DNA from: a virus
Lineage: Duplodnaviria; Heunggongvirae; Uroviricota; Caudoviricetes
Direction: 5' to 3' (one strand)
Virus record (IMG/VR): IMGVR_UViG_2663763232_000018
DNA length: 7,488 bases
Shown here piece by piece: positions 1 to 7,488 of this stretch. A program made the position numbers and the translations under genes. Every line of letters begins with the position of its first letter. Positions within the stretch are counted from its first letter, which is position 1. The notes under the pieces are model-generated. The model worked only from the letters and a program-made list of their open reading frames with translations, ran no database searches and was not told the origin of the DNA.

Positions 1-981
1 TCACACCATCAGCCCGCCGCCAAGAGGGTTTAACGTTACTGCGTGTTGCAGGTAATCAGGTGCAAGGTGAGCATAAACCATCGTCTGTTGTATGCTGGCG
101 TGCCCCAGAATTTGCTGTAACGCAATAATGTTCCCCCCGTTCATCATGAACCAGCTTGCGAACGTATGTCTAAGCACATGCGTGGCCTGCCCGCGTGGTA
201 AGTCAGGCTTAACCAGCCTGAGCCGTTCGCAGAAGTTTTCATAGTCAACTTTGAACAGTGGCCCGGTGTCGCTGGTCTTGATCTCTTTCTCCAGTTCTTC
301 CGATATCGGCACCGTGCGCTTTTTCCCATTTTTGGTCTTAAGGAACGTCACACGCCCGTGATTAACCTGCTCACCTCGCAGCGTGCTCCCTTCACCCCAG
401 CGTGCGCCAGTGCTGAGGCATAGCAGTGCTACACGTCGATCGTCGCCGGTCAGAGTATCCAGCAATTTGCTGATCTCTGATTTGGCGAGATAAGTCATAG
501 CTGGCGGCGCTTCTTTCAGTGGTTCCAGACCCTTACAGGGGTTTTCCTTTCTGAACTCTTCCAGCTTTATCAACGTGCTGAACATCCCGGACAAACGGTA
601 AATATCCCGGTTGATCGTTGCTGCGCTGATACCGTCTTCCAGCCGTTGGCTTCGGTGCTGTGCAATCATTCGCTTGTTCAGTCGGTTAACGGCTGGATCA
701 CCAAGCGCCCTGATTGTTTTATTCAGGTGCCGCTTTTCAATCTCGCCATTTTCCTGAGTCTGTCCATATAGCAGCCACCAGGTATCTAACAACTCGCTTA
801 AGGTGCGGCGGTCAACGCTCGCGCCCAGCCATTCTTTTTTGTCGGCGTTGGCTAATACATAACGCTCAAAAAGAACTGCCTCTTGTTTCTTCTCAAATCG
901 CCTGCGGATACGTTTTCCGTTACGTCCGCGCGGCCATACGTCCACTTCATATTGACCACCTTCGAGCTTCTTAATCGACAT
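1..981 (-). CDS. int: P2-family tyrosine integrase, 326 aa, complete (stop codon at window positions 1-3)
   Basis: ORF 1..981(-). Tyrosine-recombinase signature residues are visible in the translation: box-I Arg in TGARWGE, His-x-x-Arg in HVLRHT, and the C-terminal Tyr in MVYAHL. SD GGAGGG lies 7 nt upstream of the ATG at 979-981. Position next to a C-type repressor and divergent from cox matches the P2 layout. Confidence 0.9.
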   Translation of the reverse strand: MSIKKLEGGQYEVDVWPRGRNGKRIRRRFEKKQEAVLFERYVLANADKKEWLGASVDRRTLSELLDTWWLLYGQTQENGEIEKRHLNKTIRALGDPAVNRLNKRMIAQHRSQRLEDGISAATINRDIYRLSGMFSTLIKLEEFRKENPCKGLEPLKEAPPAMTYLAKSEISKLLDTLTGDDRRVALLCLSTGARWGEGSTLRGEQVNHGRVTFLKTKNGKKRTVPISEELEKEIKTSDTGPLFKVDYENFCERLRLVKPDLPRGQATHVLRHTFASWFMMNGGNIIALQQILGHASIQQTMVYAHLAPDYLQHAVTLNPLGGGLMV

Positions 982-1050: not shown

Positions 1051-1371
1051 TTAACCAGTTTGTTTCTCGGAGCGGTCTGATCCAGTTGACTCTGGCCCAA
1101 TGTGTGCGAGGGCCGGTGCGATTTGACCAGCTTGAGGGGCGGTCTTATCAGTCATAAGCCAGAGCGTGTATTTTGCGAAACGTGAATGCTGAGTGATCTT
1201 AAGCAAGATATCGCTACCAATACTCTCCACTCTTCCTGTCTCGTAATACTTCTGCGTGCCAGCAGGTATTCCAGTTAATTCAAAGAATTGCTGCCTTGTT
1301 AACCCCTCCGCATCCCTGATAGCTCTGATTTTTTCACCCACGCCGCTTGACGGGGTAGGGATCTCTACCAT
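1051..1371 (-). CDS. C: Immunity repressor, P2 C-type (HTH, about 106 aa from ATG at 1371; alternative in-frame ATG at 1404 gives 117 aa)
   Basis: Translation has an XRE-like helix-turn-helix (LTRQQFFELTGIPAGTQKYYETG) and a C-terminal segment (KYTLWLMT...GQIAPALAH) that matches my recollection of P2 C. The ATG at 1369-1371 has a near-consensus SD AAGGAG 6 nt upstream on the minus strand. Stop TAA at 1051-1053. The track ORF 1051..1410 begins with a TTG. Confidence 0.75.
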   Translation of the reverse strand: MVEIPTPSSGVGEKIRAIRDAEGLTRQQFFELTGIPAGTQKYYETGRVESIGSDILLKITQHSRFAKYTLWLMTDKTAPQAGQIAPALAHIGPESTGSDRSEKQTG

Positions 1372-1376
1372 AACAT
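1347..1376 (+). promoter_or_regulatory. Candidate rightward early promoter (Pe-like): -35 TTGACG at 1347-1352, -10-like ATAACA/TAACAT at 1370-1376
   Basis: Hexamers read by eye with a 17-18 bp spacer. The -10 is weak and the assignment is tentative. The element would overlap the 5' end of the repressor gene, consistent with the face-to-face promoter arrangement known for P2 and 186 switches. Confidence 0.25.
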
Positions 1377-1404
1377 TCTCCTTAAGGGTGGTAATCTCTA
1401 CCAT
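1361..1404. promoter_or_regulatory. Two perfect 11-bp direct repeats ATCTCTACCAT (1361-1371 and 1394-1404), 33 bp start-to-start; candidate repressor operator half-sites
   Basis: The repeats are seen directly in the sequence. They lie in the divergent int-C / cox switch region and flank a candidate -10 for the rightward early promoter, as P2 C operators (direct repeats flanking the Pe -10) do. Each repeat ends in CCAT, giving an in-frame ATG for the repressor on the minus strand. Confidence 0.4.
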
Positions 1405-1471
1405 GAGCAACCGCCAATATAAGCAGTTACAAGCCGAAATAAGCGCCTAGCGCCGATGGGGATTATGACAC

Positions 1472-1753
1472 ATGACAGAGAAAGAGTTAGAGGGGTTCAT
1501 TGAAGTGCGTCACGCCGTTGACGCGGTTCCATACCCTAAATTTGCCGAGTTAATCGGTAAGAAGCCCGCCACGGTTAAGAGCATGATTGAAGACGGTAAG
1601 TTGCCGATCATCCCGTGGAAGAACCCGGAAAGCCTGGGCGCCCGCGCTGAGAACTGGATCTATATTCCTGAGTTCAACCGCGCAATGCGTGACGCCTATT
1701 ACAACCGTCCGAGAGAACAGCGCGACGCGTGGTTGTTGTGGATCGGTCTTTGA
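1472..1753 (+). CDS. cox: Cox-like excisionase / early transcriptional regulator, 93 aa
   Basis: ORF 1472..1753(+), first gene transcribed divergently from the repressor. Size matches P2 Cox (91 aa), and the C-terminal WLLWIGL and the YPKFAELIGK segment match my recollection of P2 Cox. Confidence 0.75.
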   Translation: MTEKELEGFIEVRHAVDAVPYPKFAELIGKKPATVKSMIEDGKLPIIPWKNPESLGARAENWIYIPEFNRAMRDAYYNRPREQRDAWLLWIGL

Positions 1754-2957: not shown

Positions 2958-3206
2958 ATGAGTAACGTAGCGAAACTTCAATTAGGTTTTTCACCGCTGA
3001 CTAAAAAAATCCAGTTGGCAAAGATGCGCGATGATGGGGAAGGGCGCCGCCTTCGCGTTGGTAGTGATCCTGGTCGTGATGTGACTAACGAAGCTGCGCA
3101 ATTAGTTTGGCAGTTGGTTATGTCTGAGGGAGGGGAAATCGGCTGGAACCTGTCGGACGGTAGCCGCATGGTTTTGAAAGCTGAGAAAGTGGGGCACGCA
3201 TCATGA
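2958..3206 (+). CDS. Hypothetical small protein, 82 aa (MSNVAKLQLGFSPLTKK...)
   Basis: ATG at 2958 follows SD-like AGAGG. Its stop overlaps the dam start as ATGA (3203-3206). Confidence 0.6.
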   Translation: MSNVAKLQLGFSPLTKKIQLAKMRDDGEGRRLRVGSDPGRDVTNEAAQLVWQLVMSEGGEIGWNLSDGSRMVLKAEKVGHAS

Positions 3207-4186
3207 GCAGCCCTATTATTCGCCCGTTCATCAAATGGGCAGGGGGTAAAACCCGTGTCCTTCCTGACCTGCTGCCGCACCTTCCTAAAGCCGACTGCCT
3301 GATCGAACCGTTCGTAGGCGGCGCATCGGTATTTCTGGCGACTGAGTACCGCCGCTATGTGCTGGCTGATATCAACCCGGATCTTATTAACCTTTATCGG
3401 GAAGTCACCCGTTACCCGGACTTAGTGATCGATGCGGCCCGCGAACTGTTCAACAGCAAGAACAGCCCGCAGGGGTACAACGAAGTCCGCGCCGCGTTCA
3501 ATAAGCAGGTATGTACGGTAAAAAGCGGTGGGTTGCGTTATGGCGTCGAAATGGCGCGCATCATGCGTGCTGCTCAATTCCTGTATCTGAACCGCCACGG
3601 TTATAACGGCTTATGCCGTTACAGCCGTAAGACCGGCTTTAACGTGCCGTTTGGCAAGTATAAGAGCGTCTACTTTCCTGAAAATGAAATCCGCCTGTTT
3701 GCCGAAAAGGCCAACGATACAAAGGCAATATTTCTTTGCGCGCCGTTCCAGCGTTCTCTACAGGTCGTCACGGGTGGCGATGTTCTCGTTTACTGCGATC
3801 CGCCTTACCTGCCTGAAAGCAAAACAGCCGATTTTACCCAATACCACACCGAACCATTCACGGAAGACAACCACCGCCAGTTAGTCCAGGCACTGCTGGA
3901 AGTTAACCGTAAGCATGGCGTGAAGGTTGTCATTTCCAACAGCGACACCGAAGCCACCCGCGCGATTTATCAGCCTTTCAAGATGCACGAAATCAGCGTG
4001 CAACGTTCCGTCAGCACTGACAAAGACAACCGCCAGAAGGCCAAAGAAGTGATCGGCGTGCTGCCTGTCTGCGACTGCTGCGGGCGTTACGGCGGCGGTT
4101 GCCCTGATTGTGGCGCCGTGATGGGTGATGCGACTTACAACGCGATGGTTGCGGCAGGCACGTTTGACGATCTGGAGGCGTTTTAA
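3203..4186 (+). CDS. dam: Dam-family N6-adenine DNA methyltransferase, 327 aa, orphan (no adjacent restriction enzyme), with Cys-rich C-terminal extension
   Basis: N-terminal KWAGGK (residues 11-16), SAM-binding-like EPFVGGASVF, and catalytic DPPY (codons 3797-3808) are seen in the translation and are hallmark motifs of Dam-type MTases. A Cys cluster CDCCGRYGGGCPDC (codons 4070-4111) lies in a C-terminal tail beyond the length of E. coli Dam. Confidence 0.85.
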   Translation: MSSPIIRPFIKWAGGKTRVLPDLLPHLPKADCLIEPFVGGASVFLATEYRRYVLADINPDLINLYREVTRYPDLVIDAARELFNSKNSPQGYNEVRAAFNKQVCTVKSGGLRYGVEMARIMRAAQFLYLNRHGYNGLCRYSRKTGFNVPFGKYKSVYFPENEIRLFAEKANDTKAIFLCAPFQRSLQVVTGGDVLVYCDPPYLPESKTADFTQYHTEPFTEDNHRQLVQALLEVNRKHGVKVVISNSDTEATRAIYQPFKMHEISVQRSVSTDKDNRQKAKEVIGVLPVCDCCGRYGGGCPDCGAVMGDATYNAMVAAGTFDDLEAF

Positions 4187-4365
4187 TGAATCTTGTAGAC
4201 GCCTGGATCGTTGAAATCATAAGCGTGAGTCGTGGCGAGATTGTGCCGTATTGGTTGGTTGAGGCGAAAGTAACAGCTTATGGAAGGGAGTCAATAACCA
4301 CAATTCTGAAGAAATCAGAAGAGGAAGCCAAAGCCGTTAAAGTAGGGGATGTAGTTCAAATATGA
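4186..4365 (+). CDS. Hypothetical small protein, 59 aa (MNLVDAWIVEIISVSRGEIVPYWLVEAKVTAYGRESITTILKKSEEEAKAVKVGDVVQI); not present in the supplied ORF track
   Basis: Hand-translated ORF exactly filling the dam-A gap. Its ATG overlaps the dam stop (TAATG at 4184-4188) and its stop overlaps the A start (ATGA at 4362-4365). It was probably omitted from the track for length. Confidence 0.5.
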   Translation: MNLVDAWIVEIISVSRGEIVPYWLVEAKVTAYGRESITTILKKSEEEAKAVKVGDVVQI

Positions 4366-6719
4366 CCACGGCAACCAGTGGCCGTCGCGCCCCTTCTCCA
4401 CCTCCACCGTATCCGGGCAGCACTGACAATGCTATCCCTTACGCTTATGGCGGGAACAAACCATACCAGCCGATTGGCGTTGATGTAGCGCCGGGGCTGG
4501 ATGGTTTCGACTATCTCACGCCGGACGGCACGCGTAAGCATATTGCGTTCAGTGAACTGGTAGCGGAGGACGAAAAGCCGGAACGCAGTAAGCTGCTGCG
4601 TCGCCGTCTGGCTTCTCTTCCGCAATATGTCCGCCGCCACTTTGCAGCGAAGCTTGATGCGCTGGATGTGAAAGACCGCAAAGCGGCAGATCACTGGCTG
4701 CTTAACACCTTTGAGCGCCACGTATTAACGCGTATTGATAGCGTGAACAGTGTTTACCAGCCTGATACTGTGATGCCCGGCATTCTGCTGCCAATTCGCG
4801 ATCAGCTTTTCCGTATGCTCTGGGCAGGGAAAAAAGAGTTAAAAAGACTGGCTTATACGCTTGCCGATATCTTTACGAGCGAGTTTATACGCGAGTCCGA
4901 TCACCAGTTGGTGCGCACCGGCGATCCTGAGTTCGCGGCGCTTTCTGGCTATGGCCGTATTGCATCGCTGGCAGTGCATCTGAAAACGCCGATCCCCGGT
5001 TGGACAGCTTATTGCAATGAAGAACTTGAAGCGGAGGACGCGTTACGCGCAGTTCTCCGTCTTGAGTCACCGCAGTGGTGGTTAAACCGCCTGCGCCGTA
5101 TCCATGCCCGGTGGCGTGAGCATTTGATGATCGCAGCGGGATACGTCCAGAAAAAATCCTCCCCATACAGTAGCGCCCCGTGCCTTACGGAATGGCTGGC
5201 CCAGAAAAAAGCTAACCGTGAATACCTCAAGGCTATGGAACTGGAAGACCAGGACACGGGCGAGCGCATTTCGCTGATCGATAAAGTCGCCGGCAGTGTT
5301 GCCAATCCGGCCAACCGTCGCCGCGAACTCATGACGAGAATGCGCGGATTTGAAGATCTGGCGAAGCTGGAAGGGCTGGCCGGTGACTTCTACACGCTGA
5401 CAGCGCCTTCCCGCTATCACGCTATGCAGCATAACGGGCGCCGTAATAACAAATACTGTGGCGCGTCGCCGCGTGAGACACAGCAATATCTTTGCAAAGT
5501 CTGGGCGAGAACCCGCGCCGCATGGAAGAGAAAAGGGATCCGCGTCTTTGGTTTCCGCGTGGTCGAACCGCACCACGATGCAACGCCACACTGGCATTTG
5601 CTTCTTTTTATGCGCCCGGAATGCGTCGAGCAGGCGCGCGAAATCTTCCGTAAATATGCCCTGAAAGAAGACGGCAACGAACCGGGAGCGCAGGAAAACC
5701 GCTTTCAGGTCGTGCCGATCGACGATGCCCACGGCAGCGCAACTGGCTACATAGCGAAATACATTTCGAAGAATATCGACGGCTTCGCGCTGGATGGTGA
5801 GAAGGACGACGAAACCGGGGAAGACCTGAAAGAAATGTCACTCCGCGTTAGCGCGTGGGCATCGCGCTGGGCTATTCGTCAGTTTCAGCAGATCGGCGGT
5901 GCGCCGGTCACGGTATATCGCGAACTTCGCCGCTTGGGCGATCGCGAACTGGTGTTACACCCTGAACTGGAAACCGCCCGGCAGGCCGCTAACGGTGGCG
6001 AATGGGATAACTACGTATTAGCCCAGGGTGGCCCGTTGGTTGAGCGCGATAAGCTGCGCATCCGTCTGAATTATGAAACCACTGAAAACGGCAACGCCTA
6101 CGGCGATAACGTCCAGCGAATCACTGGTATTTACTGCCCGATTACGGGCAATGACTCTTTGATCTTCACCCGCACCACTCAATACAAAATCGTGCCGAAG
6201 CGCCAGAGCGCTGACGGTGTGGCCGTTGACGTTGGTTTTTCAGGCGGCAACGCCGCCCCTCGGAGTTCTGTCAATAACTGTACGCGGGATCCCGCGGCAG
6301 GTGCTGACGGTGTTGAACATGCCGATCACGAAGTGGGCGAGACGGTGAATTTTGATGCGCTTTCACGGCAGGAAAAGCGAGAACTGGCACAGAGGCTAAG
6401 TGACGATGTGCGAAGTAAGCGGAAAAAACGGCCACCGGAACGGGAAGACGGGGCCGGGATATCCGTGAAAGAGCAGCAGATCAGTGAACTGCTGGCGCTG
6501 CGTGGGATTGATGCCAGCGCCGGAATGGTCAGATCGATGATGGCCGGTGCGTCAGTGGCGTGCGGCGATCTTGTTATGACAGTGCAGGATGGGCGGCTGG
6601 TATCGCGCAACCGCGCCGCGTCGGGGCTGGATAAGCTGCCGTCGCAGGTGATGGCGGCGAAGCAACAGACAAATAGTCTTATTAACCGAATGAAAAAAGC
6701 CTTTAACGGTGCGTCATAA
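4362..6719 (+). CDS. A: Rolling-circle replication initiation protein gpA (HUH endonuclease superfamily), 785 aa
   Basis: HUH motif in PHWHLLLF (codons 5589-5597); paired catalytic tyrosines in GYIAKYISKNIDG (Tyr codons 5748-5750 and 5760-5762). Other blocks (TLTAPSRYH, VVEPHHDATPHWH, AWASRWAIRQF, RTTQYKIVPK, AAPRSSVNNC) match my recollection of P2 gpA. Confidence 0.9.
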   Translation: MTTATSGRRAPSPPPPYPGSTDNAIPYAYGGNKPYQPIGVDVAPGLDGFDYLTPDGTRKHIAFSELVAEDEKPERSKLLRRRLASLPQYVRRHFAAKLDALDVKDRKAADHWLLNTFERHVLTRIDSVNSVYQPDTVMPGILLPIRDQLFRMLWAGKKELKRLAYTLADIFTSEFIRESDHQLVRTGDPEFAALSGYGRIASLAVHLKTPIPGWTAYCNEELEAEDALRAVLRLESPQWWLNRLRRIHARWREHLMIAAGYVQKKSSPYSSAPCLTEWLAQKKANREYLKAMELEDQDTGERISLIDKVAGSVANPANRRRELMTRMRGFEDLAKLEGLAGDFYTLTAPSRYHAMQHNGRRNNKYCGASPRETQQYLCKVWARTRAAWKRKGIRVFGFRVVEPHHDATPHWHLLLFMRPECVEQAREIFRKYALKEDGNEPGAQENRFQVVPIDDAHGSATGYIAKYISKNIDGFALDGEKDDETGEDLKEMSLRVSAWASRWAIRQFQQIGGAPVTVYRELRRLGDRELVLHPELETARQAANGGEWDNYVLAQGGPLVERDKLRIRLNYETTENGNAYGDNVQRITGIYCPITGNDSLIFTRTTQYKIVPKRQSADGVAVDVGFSGGNAAPRSSVNNCTRDPAAGADGVEHADHEVGETVNFDALSRQEKRELAQRLSDDVRSKRKKRPPEREDGAGISVKEQQISELLALRGIDASAGMVRSMMAGASVACGDLVMTVQDGRLVSRNRAASGLDKLPSQVMAAKQQTNSLINRMKKAFNGAS
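6258..6274 (+). other. Candidate origin-of-replication nick region inside gene A (CCTCGGAGTTCTGTCAA)
   Basis: In P2 the ori lies within the A coding region. This stretch encodes the conserved AAPRSSVNNC block and closely resembles the P2 ori nick-site sequence as I remember it (one mismatch). That memory was not verified, so the call is tentative. Confidence 0.35.
6283..6296. repeat. Perfect 14-bp palindrome CGCGGGATCCCGCG with a central GATC, inside gene A
   Basis: Self-complementarity verified base by base. It lies 9 bp downstream of the candidate ori nick sequence. Confidence 0.85.
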
Positions 6720-6771
6720 CAGCGTGCCGGGGCTTCGCTTATTCATTTTCAGAAGAAACAGGAGTGACAGC

Positions 6772-7488
6772 ATGAGCAAAATTACCAGAGAACGCGCAGC
6801 AAAAATTGCAGCAGGCGGCGGATATAACTTTGATGAGGTGGAGGAGCTGGCGCGTATCGCGCTGGCATCGCTCGAAGCGGAGGAGTCAGGGCGAAATCCC
6901 GTGCTGGCCTATGCAGACAGTTACCGCGATATGGCTAAGCAGGGTGTTGAATCTATTCCTGTATGGAGCGTAATTACCGATCTGGAAAGAAATATCGCCC
7001 CGCTATACTCCGCCCCGCCAGCGCCGGTAGTTCCGGCAGAGCTTCATCCTGATACGCTGAAACTGGTGACCGACTTCAGCTCCGCCCTGGCTGAGAAGTT
7101 GTACAAGGCTCAATTAAAATATGGCTATGACGCGGACTGGAAACAAGATGGTTGGCCAAGCCAATGCCAGGCAGACTTTCAACAGCATATAGCTAAGGGA
7201 GACCCCCGGGATGTTGCCGCTTACTGTGCATTTATGTGGTATCACGGCTGGAAAACTGAGCCAGCGCCGGTATCGCTGCCTGACGAGCAACATAGCGAAC
7301 GCTTCAACTGGACACTTGGGCAGTGGGCTGAACATGTTGGGGGTCATTACCAGGGAAATGATCCGGCAAACTATTACGAGTTCGGCTCATTCATGGCGGT
7401 CGCTGCAATGCTGTGCCAATTCGGCACCGTTCAGCAAAAAATTGGATGGAACGCCTGCCGCGCCGCCATGGTTAACGCAGGCCAGTGA
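6772..7488 (+). CDS. Hypothetical two-domain protein, 238 aa, unknown function
   Basis: ATG at 6772 has a strong SD AGGAG (6760-6764) 7 nt upstream. The track start at 6709 is a GTG overlapping the end of A. The translation shows an acidic N-terminal region and a Trp/aromatic-rich C-terminal region (KYGYDADWKQDGW, AAYCAFMWYHGW) separated by a Pro/Ala linker (APPAPVVPAELHP). Stop TGA at 7486-7488. Confidence 0.7.
   Translation: MSKITRERAAKIAAGGGYNFDEVEELARIALASLEAEESGRNPVLAYADSYRDMAKQGVESIPVWSVITDLERNIAPLYSAPPAPVVPAELHPDTLKLVTDFSSALAEKLYKAQLKYGYDADWKQDGWPSQCQADFQQHIAKGDPRDVAAYCAFMWYHGWKTEPAPVSLPDEQHSERFNWTLGQWAEHVGGHYQGNDPANYYEFGSFMAVAAMLCQFGTVQQKIGWNACRAAMVNAGQ

Follow-up and report, generated by a model that had tools for sequence, protein, structure and literature searches.

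We analysed a stretch of 7,488 nucleotides of viral DNA (IMG/VR record IMGVR_UViG_2663763232_000018; Caudoviricetes), referred to here as the window, and asked how its replication origin is built. Profile searches of its open reading frames (ORFs) show that the window covers the early genes of a temperate, P2-like phage (Peduoviridae). The origin lies inside gene A, a Phage_GPA homologue that codes for the initiator endonuclease gpA, at residues ~628-641 of 785. Altogether, our results make it likely that this origin consists of a hairpin, a nick-site core and a fast-evolving, GATC-prone 3' flank, and that a 14-bp palindrome in this flank is probably not under selection. The features concerned are as follows.

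3203-4186, plus strand: phage-borne gene for a Dam-family N6-adenine methyltransferase (Pfam MethyltransfD12 (D12), E=5e-63; NCBIfam TIGR00571 'dam', scoring 273 bits where the cutoff is 114.85)
4362-6719, plus strand: gene A homologue (gpA, rolling-circle initiator endonuclease), 785 aa, containing the origin (Pfam Phage_GPA (PF05840), E=5.7e-106, residues 159-474)
6243-6257, plus strand: GC-rich hairpin directly 5' of the core, GGCGGC (6243-6248)-AAC-GCCGCC (6252-6257), from single-stranded DNA (ssDNA) folding and stem recurrence
6259-6284, plus strand: invariant nick-site core, CTCGGAGTTCTGTCAATAACTGTACG, with a 19/21 match to the P2-type origin and the top synonymous conservation of the gene
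6262-6263, plus strand: predicted gpA nick position, within CGG/A, from homology to the P2 and 186 records
6283-6296, no strand assigned: 14-bp perfect palindrome CGCGGGATCCCGCG, which shares its first two bases with the core and otherwise lies in the variable 3' flank
6288-6291, no strand assigned: GATC, a Dam target, which forms the middle of the palindrome and lies 30 nt past the beginning of the core
6324-6327, no strand assigned: second GATC, 36 bp from the first, kept in L003, L008, L009, L140 and L198 and lost in L004-L007, which have a different C-terminal segment (L numbers denote the loci compared)

A P2-type origin within the initiator gene

An earlier reading made without database searches (the sequence-only reading) had proposed a P2-family origin and nick site within A, from a close match to the P2 nick-site sequence. 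The sequences and coordinates that it gave, CCTCGGAGTTCTGTCAA at 6258-6274 and the palindrome at 6283-6296, are exact, the codons at 6252-6281 read AAPRSSVNNC, and its identification is borne out by alignment to the annotated origins of P2, 186 and fiAA91-ss. Window positions 6255-6275 (GCCCCTCGGAGTTCTGTCAAT) are identical at 19 of 21 positions to the rep_origin feature of fiAA91-ss (GCGCCTCGGAGTCCTGTCAAT, annotated as 'located within gene A'), which verifies the match for this P2-type 21-mer, and the origin is found at 0.81 of the gene length in P2 and the window alike. The 'nick site at ori' of the P2 record (29892) is the first G of CCTCGGAG / GCGCCTCGGAGTCC and aligns with G6262, while the mark of phage 186, made 'by similarity with P2', is the second G of TCTCGGAG and aligns with window position 6263. 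The marks of P2 (L002 2375-2432) and 186 (L283 4550-4625) are one base apart, on the first versus the second G of CGG.

In megablast searches, query positions 1878-1926 (window 6239-6287) are the sole part of the gene that aligns to Vibrio and Aeromonas phages and to one distant E. coli phage, and in blastn 182 phage records match essentially this origin stretch alone. The nick-site sequence is conserved across P2-like phages and Peduoviridae, including PV94 and Smhb1 (PMC3986222; PMC8537503); literal sequence searches of the literature returned nothing relevant. Judged from these alignments, window ~6243-6284 almost certainly holds the nick site and rolling-circle origin of a P2-like phage, within gene A for the phage's own initiator. 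It is of a kind already known, the ordinary P2 type.

Constraint on the core acts on DNA

The core is present in 79 of the 80 loci that we collected from one-genome-per-species bacterial contigs by means of peptide patterns elsewhere in gpA. Synonymous conservation was measured on a codon alignment of 54 proteins with <90% shared identity (the non-redundant gpA set) as the share of same-amino-acid sequence pairs with an identical codon, in 8-codon windows. In this comparison, which the sequence-only reading had proposed, the strongest peak of the whole gene falls on the origin core, with 0.98 at 6258-6281 against a gene-wide 0.43±0.10. Counted among the sequences with the same amino acid, the codons used are CCT in 34/34, AGT in 50/51, TCT in 36/36, GTC in 51/51, AAT in 51/51, AAC in 54/54, TGT in 48/48 and ACG in 35/36. 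First-position changes that replace the amino acid are frequent in the same codons: CCT/TCT/GCT (P/S/A), CGG/TGG/AGG (R/W) and TCT/CCT/TGT (S/P/C). Because synonyms are almost never used while amino-acid changes are tolerated, the constraint acts on DNA, over about 6259-6284, and the conserved AAPRSSVNNC peptide is a by-product of it.

If the peptide itself were essential in gpA, the DNA would be conserved merely as a consequence, and the protein does show an identity peak here (0.75 in the core versus 0.1-0.3 in both flanks) with an invariant N639. Such a protein requirement is nevertheless contradicted by the essentially complete disuse of synonyms at eight consecutive codons, by the common first-position replacements, and by the arms of the hairpin 5' of the core, which alter the encoded residues in concert. 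We reject a protein-level cause on the codon evidence and regard it as extremely improbable.

When eleven close relatives are compared, the 60 nt that vary least in the whole gene begin at 6224-6233. Variability is 0.07 at 6235-6279, compared with 0.23-0.37 upstream and 0.30 at 6280-6309, and is at background again from ~6285.

A hairpin with conserved structure adjoins the core

Directly 5' of the core, the GC-rich hairpin folds as ssDNA with -7.6 kcal/mol (z=-3.1). In 45 of the 54 non-redundant relatives, 5 bp or more of uninterrupted stem end between -2 and +1 of the core start, and the fraction of other positions in the same gene that do as well has a median of 0.011; in 44/54 the stem reaches P<0.05 against composition-preserving shuffles of the same 20 nt. 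The stem sequences themselves differ widely, with more than 20 distinct ones at this position across relatives, among them the following.

P2: GCGGC-ATC-GCCGC
186: AGGGCGC-TTCT-GCGCCCT
Burkholderia-type phage: GGCGGC-GGA-GCCGCC
Other relatives: GGCCGC/GCGGCC, GGACGGC/GCCGTCC, GCGCC/GGCGC, CGTCGCC/GGCGACG, GGTGC/GCACC, GGAATC/GATTCC and GCCGAT/ATCGGC

In the commonest register, represented by 62 distinct sequences, the five core pairs are kept in 98-100% and both sides have changed in all five. The covariation score is 0.41, compared with 0.09 in shuffles and at most 0.11 with the partner slid, in a register-sorted alignment and hence with a bias from the sorting. Within the close clade, variation of the hairpin is confined to the loop (AAC, AGC, AGT). 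Across the family the arms recode the protein in concert, giving GG-x-AA, GR-x-AA, DG-x-AV and GA-x-AP.

A hairpin inside a gene might also act in the A mRNA, through translation pausing, RNase processing or stability, rather than in the origin DNA. In favour of this, the elements are transcribed within gene A, and interruptions of the stem by G·T (compatible with G·U) are somewhat more numerous than those by A·C, 9 versus 5; this difference is not significant, though, and equally fits plus-strand DNA. An Rfam search of 6000-6500 returned no family, and a role in mRNA leaves unexplained why the hairpin keeps a fixed position (±1 nt) at the core across gamma- and beta-proteobacterial phages. 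We consider an mRNA function very unlikely and the upstream hairpin probably an element of the origin, in which structure rather than sequence is conserved. This covarying 5' hairpin, which the sequence-only reading had missed, is better supported than the palindrome. Searchable literature, which left the primary P2 papers outside its reach, yielded no description of it.

In the high-GC P2-like phages L229-L258, the upstream stem is CCCGC-N6-GCGGG and does not adjoin the core, from which it is ~10 nt away; their core reads GTGTAAATAAC. This arrangement is a variant origin architecture.

The palindrome in the 3' flank

The sequence-only reading suggested that methylation or structure controls initiation here. 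In a model of this kind, the palindrome would be extruded next to the nick site, as a hairpin or a cruciform, and its Dam methylation, by host or phage enzyme, would gate initiation. Several observations are in keeping with such a model. The palindrome folds as ssDNA into a stem of 5 bp whose loop is GATC (-6.0 kcal/mol, z=-2.1), and when it is folded together with the upstream hairpin, the two bracket the core and leave it unpaired in ssDNA of either strand (-14.6 kcal/mol, z=-2.3). Adenine methylation at the centre of an inverted repeat reportedly speeds cruciform extrusion (Murchie and Lilley, 1989). The phage has a Dam-family gene of its own. Across lineages an excess of GATC recurs in the same flank, often within local palindromes such as GGGATCCGG-TG-CCGGATCCC in L049 and AGATC-GG-GATCT in L019, and some members of the subclade (L012, L009, L011/L013) keep a stem in the same place with altered bases.

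Against the model stands, first, the frequency of such palindromes by chance: first-order Markov simulations give a mean of 0.59 perfect 14-bp palindromes per window, with P(>=1)=0.45. Within the close clade, 4/14 palindrome columns vary, equal to the background rate. L009 reads CGCGGGAGTCTGCG, with both the GATC and perfect pairing lost, and L010 and L140 are without the outer pair. Among more remote members of the 'TACGCGG' group, the stem is kept in L011/L013 (CGCGG-GAG-CCGCG) and L012 (CGTGG-CCAAA-CCACG), weakened in L091 and L110, and gone in L151, L115, L193 and L195. P2 and 186 have no palindrome and replicate without it. The predicted nick at 6262-6263 is in neither hairpin loop: the upstream stem ends 5-6 nt before it, and the palindrome follows 20 nt after it.

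We also looked for a 3' hairpin across the family and rejected it, because neither folding energy nor positioned stems are enriched. For the 40 nt past the core, the folding energy is no different from that of 40-nt windows elsewhere in these genes (median percentile 0.46, Kolmogorov-Smirnov (KS) p=0.81; the folding energy of the window's own 3' flank is at the 25th percentile), and stems starting at +24..+28 are not enriched (KS p=0.95). The palindrome is thus not supported as a conserved control element that forms a hairpin: its occurrence is at chance level, it changes as fast as the background in the close clade, P2 and 186 do not have it, and no excess of 3' structure is seen across the family. 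The palindrome is probably a lineage-specific, unselected form of a variable flank; we doubt that it has a function as such, and extrusion gated by Dam methylation is an improbable account of this origin.

The 3' flanks of the origins of Burkholderia-type phages (L203 2455-2500 and L204-L228) contain a long-range stem, CGCGGG...CCCGCG, whose arms are those of the window palindrome. It encloses an insert with a GGCC-AGGGGT-GGCC hairpin and CGATCG, and L214 has CGCGGTCGG...CCGACCGCG in place of CGCGGG...CCCGCG, an apparent compensatory variant. The shared arms can be counted in favour of a role for the palindrome.

GATC sites recur 3' of the core

The window as a whole is rich in GATC, with 44 sites against 24.9±5.3 in first-order Markov simulations; at one per 170 bp, a GATC at any given spot is unremarkable. 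Two lie within 6288-6327. We examined the recurrence of GATC at this position among 114 non-redundant origins from gammaproteobacterial hosts and viral contigs, which fall into 35 clusters of mutually unalignable flanks. Per 20-nt bin, GATC occurs at 0.28 at +20..+39 and 0.23 at +40..+59, compared with ~0.06 elsewhere and zero in the core and hairpin. Over the 45 nt 3' of the core (+20..+68), the cluster-weighted count is 25.6 versus 5.7 from the gene background, an excess of ~4.5-fold, and versus 11.7±2.4 after codon shuffling; on synonymous resampling with each gene's own usage it is 24.6 versus 12.2±2.3, and nine control blocks are without excess. All three reading frames contribute to the excess (10.7, 7.4 and 7.5), and 16/35 clusters have a GATC against a background fraction of 0.16 (binomial P=4e-5). 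GATC is the sole enriched palindromic 4-mer (z=5.1, rank 2/256). The peptide TERSV is encoded by GAA-CGA-TCA in one lineage and by GAG-AGA-TCG in another, with rare Arg codons and with the GATC kept in both.

The sequence-only reading had noted that the phage carries its own Dam, which the D12 and TIGR00571 matches confirm; from its family membership, the window methylase is presumably specific for GATC. Among the representatives, phage-borne Dam and GATC near the origin are not associated: a GATC follows the core in 38% of those with Dam and in 35% of those without, which also speaks against the palindrome model. P2 has no GATC in its 3' flank. The high-GC (Burkholderia-type) phages, taken as a Dam-negative control, give an ambiguous picture, with no GATC excess relative to the flanking density and an excess relative to the synonymous expectation; a search of the 1.5-kb flanks of this set found no D12 methylase. 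The proposed link to methylation survives just in a weaker form: GATC near the nick is recurrent, being enriched 3' of the core in lineage after lineage, while a dependence on phage-borne Dam is not seen. A function of the GATC sites near the nick is a real possibility, if somewhat less than an even bet.

Genomic setting

The other genes assigned in the window are as follows.

1-981, minus strand: integrase
1051-1410, minus strand: helix-turn-helix repressor-like ORF
1472-1753, plus strand: Cox
2958-3206, plus strand: DUF7446 protein

The dam gene sits upstream of gene A. The closest phage records are SEN4 and SEN5 of Salmonella, whose genes annotated as 'replication protein / nicking at origin of replication' share 95.6% of their nucleotides with gene A, and phiT5282H of Enterobacter, with 96.3%; on bacterial chromosomes, prophages in Salmonella, Kosakonia, Citrobacter and Enterobacter come closest. 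A sequence search for a homologue of gpA in the PDB found none. The filamentous-phage initiator RstA (hit H130, rstA of the CTXphi RS2 element) aligns with gpA residues 228-572 at 37% identity, an alignment that, as a likeness in protein sequence, links P2-type and CTXphi-type rolling-circle initiators.

Some 60 nt 3' of the origin, at window ~6322-6335, L004-L007 switch to another sequence (a 33-nt indel, with all columns variable past 6325), and this suggests a mosaic or recombination joint and an exchangeable gpA C-terminus. The end of gene A is overlapped by an ORF at 6709-7488 (plus strand) that runs past the window end and takes the place of P2's variable orf91/tin region; it has no Pfam or NCBIfam match, and its PHROG matches are only of unknown function (phrog_16519, phrog_4838).

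Elsewhere in the window are two AT-rich palindromes, each perfect over 12 bp: TGTTTATAAACA at 1038-1049, between int and the repressor-like ORF on the minus strand, just beyond this ORF's 3' end, and TATTTATAAATA at 2934-2945, at the end of ORF 2730-2942. The number of 12-bp palindromes in the window is at the chance level (3 observed versus 2.3 expected).

Discussion

Our results support a reading of this origin in which a hairpin kept as structure abuts a core kept as DNA sequence, followed by a fast-evolving flank that is prone to GATC. Several observations weigh against it and are set out together here. The exact bond and the nicked strand are predicted from database annotations, in which P2 and 186 disagree by one base. 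RNAalifold on an unbiased ungapped alignment of the 54 upstream regions returned no consensus hairpin, fixed-column pair counts on the unsorted alignment are modestly above controls, and 8/54 relatives have no perfect stem at the hairpin position. The stem occurs in two registers one base apart between lineages; the strong covariation score therefore comes from sequences presorted by register, and for the same reason we rely on the per-sequence positional and shuffle tests and on the register-sorted alignment. For GATC, the null of the test is over-dispersed, several other 4-mers having z>3 and CGGT tying with GATC, and the lineage clusters are partly dependent in that a D-Q motif shared by descent gives several of the GATCs near +50. 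Finally, the subclade partly keeps its 3' hairpin with changes (CGTGG/CCACG in L012, a G·T pair in L009, a 3-nt loop in L011/L013), and the palindrome may therefore be under weak selection.

Comparison with known systems places the window closest to the P2 origin, as also found in 186 and fiAA91-ss, with which it shares the Phage_GPA family, the 0.81 position, 19/21 identity and the adjoining 5' hairpin. It differs from the P2-type core by two bases (G>C, and C>T giving Pro>Ser) and in the sequence of the stem. Its 3' flank is unrelated to that of P2, which is without palindrome or GATC, and the flank of 186 has GCGAAAGCGATCC. The window has a dam gene upstream of A, whereas the P2 record annotates none upstream of A (from 27246). 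The flank of 186 also carries GCGAAAGC fused to GATC, a motif that we take to be a very stable DNA mini-hairpin.

The 30-nt origin of the phiX174 gene A protein likewise lies within the initiator's own gene, and this initiator belongs, like gpA, to the two-tyrosine HUH enzymes and becomes linked to the 5' end. Both types presumably cut after G, with an AATAAC block 3' of the nick (CAACTTG/ATATTAATAAC in phiX174), at a nick-to-AATAAC spacing that we take to be 5 nt in phiX174 versus 9 nt in the P2 type. We know of no need for a flanking hairpin in phiX174. At relaxase origins of transfer (oriT), an inverted repeat lies a few nt 5' of nic, much as the GC-rich hairpin lies 5' of the predicted nick in the window, and the Helitron 3'-end hairpin is described as a terminator (PMC4778049). 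The likeness to both is a GC-rich hairpin with conserved structure and free sequence, which on the processed strand precedes the cleaved bond by a few nt, provided that the top strand is the one cleaved here. Relaxases and Helitrons are other protein families, serving transfer and transposition and not phage replication, and a similar role for the P2-family hairpin would follow by analogy. The origins of pT181, geminiviruses and circoviruses resemble the window in HUH/Rep-type nicking at a structured origin (review PMC5714925); they are nicked in a hairpin loop, whereas the core of the window lies between or outside hairpins. Sites under control of Dam and SeqA (E. coli oriC, P1 oriR, P1 pac) may share with the window a local excess of GATC by the start of replication or processing. 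Such origins have clusters of 5-11 GATCs. The window flank has 1-3 and no initiator boxes.

From the behaviour of HUH initiators (PMC5714925) and of P2 gpA, we propose how the origin may work. The HUH-type two-tyrosine endonuclease gpA, the product of this gene, would act in cis, recognise the core as single-stranded DNA and cut within CGG/A (~6262-6263); it would remain bound to the 5' end, and synthesis of the leading strand would start from the 3'-OH. The top strand is probably the nicked one. With the top strand cut, the GATC flank would be copied first and would therefore be the first to become hemimethylated, and the hairpin would be the last element to be displaced before the regenerated nick site emerges. 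The hairpin could accordingly serve as a landmark for gpA binding, for recognition of the regenerated origin at termination, or for both, comparable to relaxase and Helitron hairpins, and the GATC sites might couple use of the origin to its methylation state.

More speculatively, and with rather little confidence, P2-family origins may be tripartite, made up of a structure-only hairpin, an invariant core and a GATC flank that ties rolling-circle initiation or re-initiation to Dam methylation. This might occur by binding of SeqA to the hemimethylated, first-replicated flank or by easier melting due to N6-methyladenine. If so, a GATC-centred, cruciform-capable palindrome would make opening of the origin sensitive to supercoiling and methylation in this lineage, and the refractory period would be briefer owing to the Dam that the phage encodes.

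As an origin it is routine, and it confirms an intact P2-type replication module in a prophage-like element. The upstream covarying hairpin and the GATC excess, neither of which we found in the searchable literature, are the parts that deserve experiment and are of interest for rolling-circle initiators. A hairpin before the P2-family nick site, kept by compensatory changes at the expense of the protein, bears on how gpA, which in vitro reportedly cleaves nothing but single-stranded DNA, finds its site or terminates at it, and GATC kept just 3' of the nick makes an influence of Dam and SeqA on P2-type replication directly testable.

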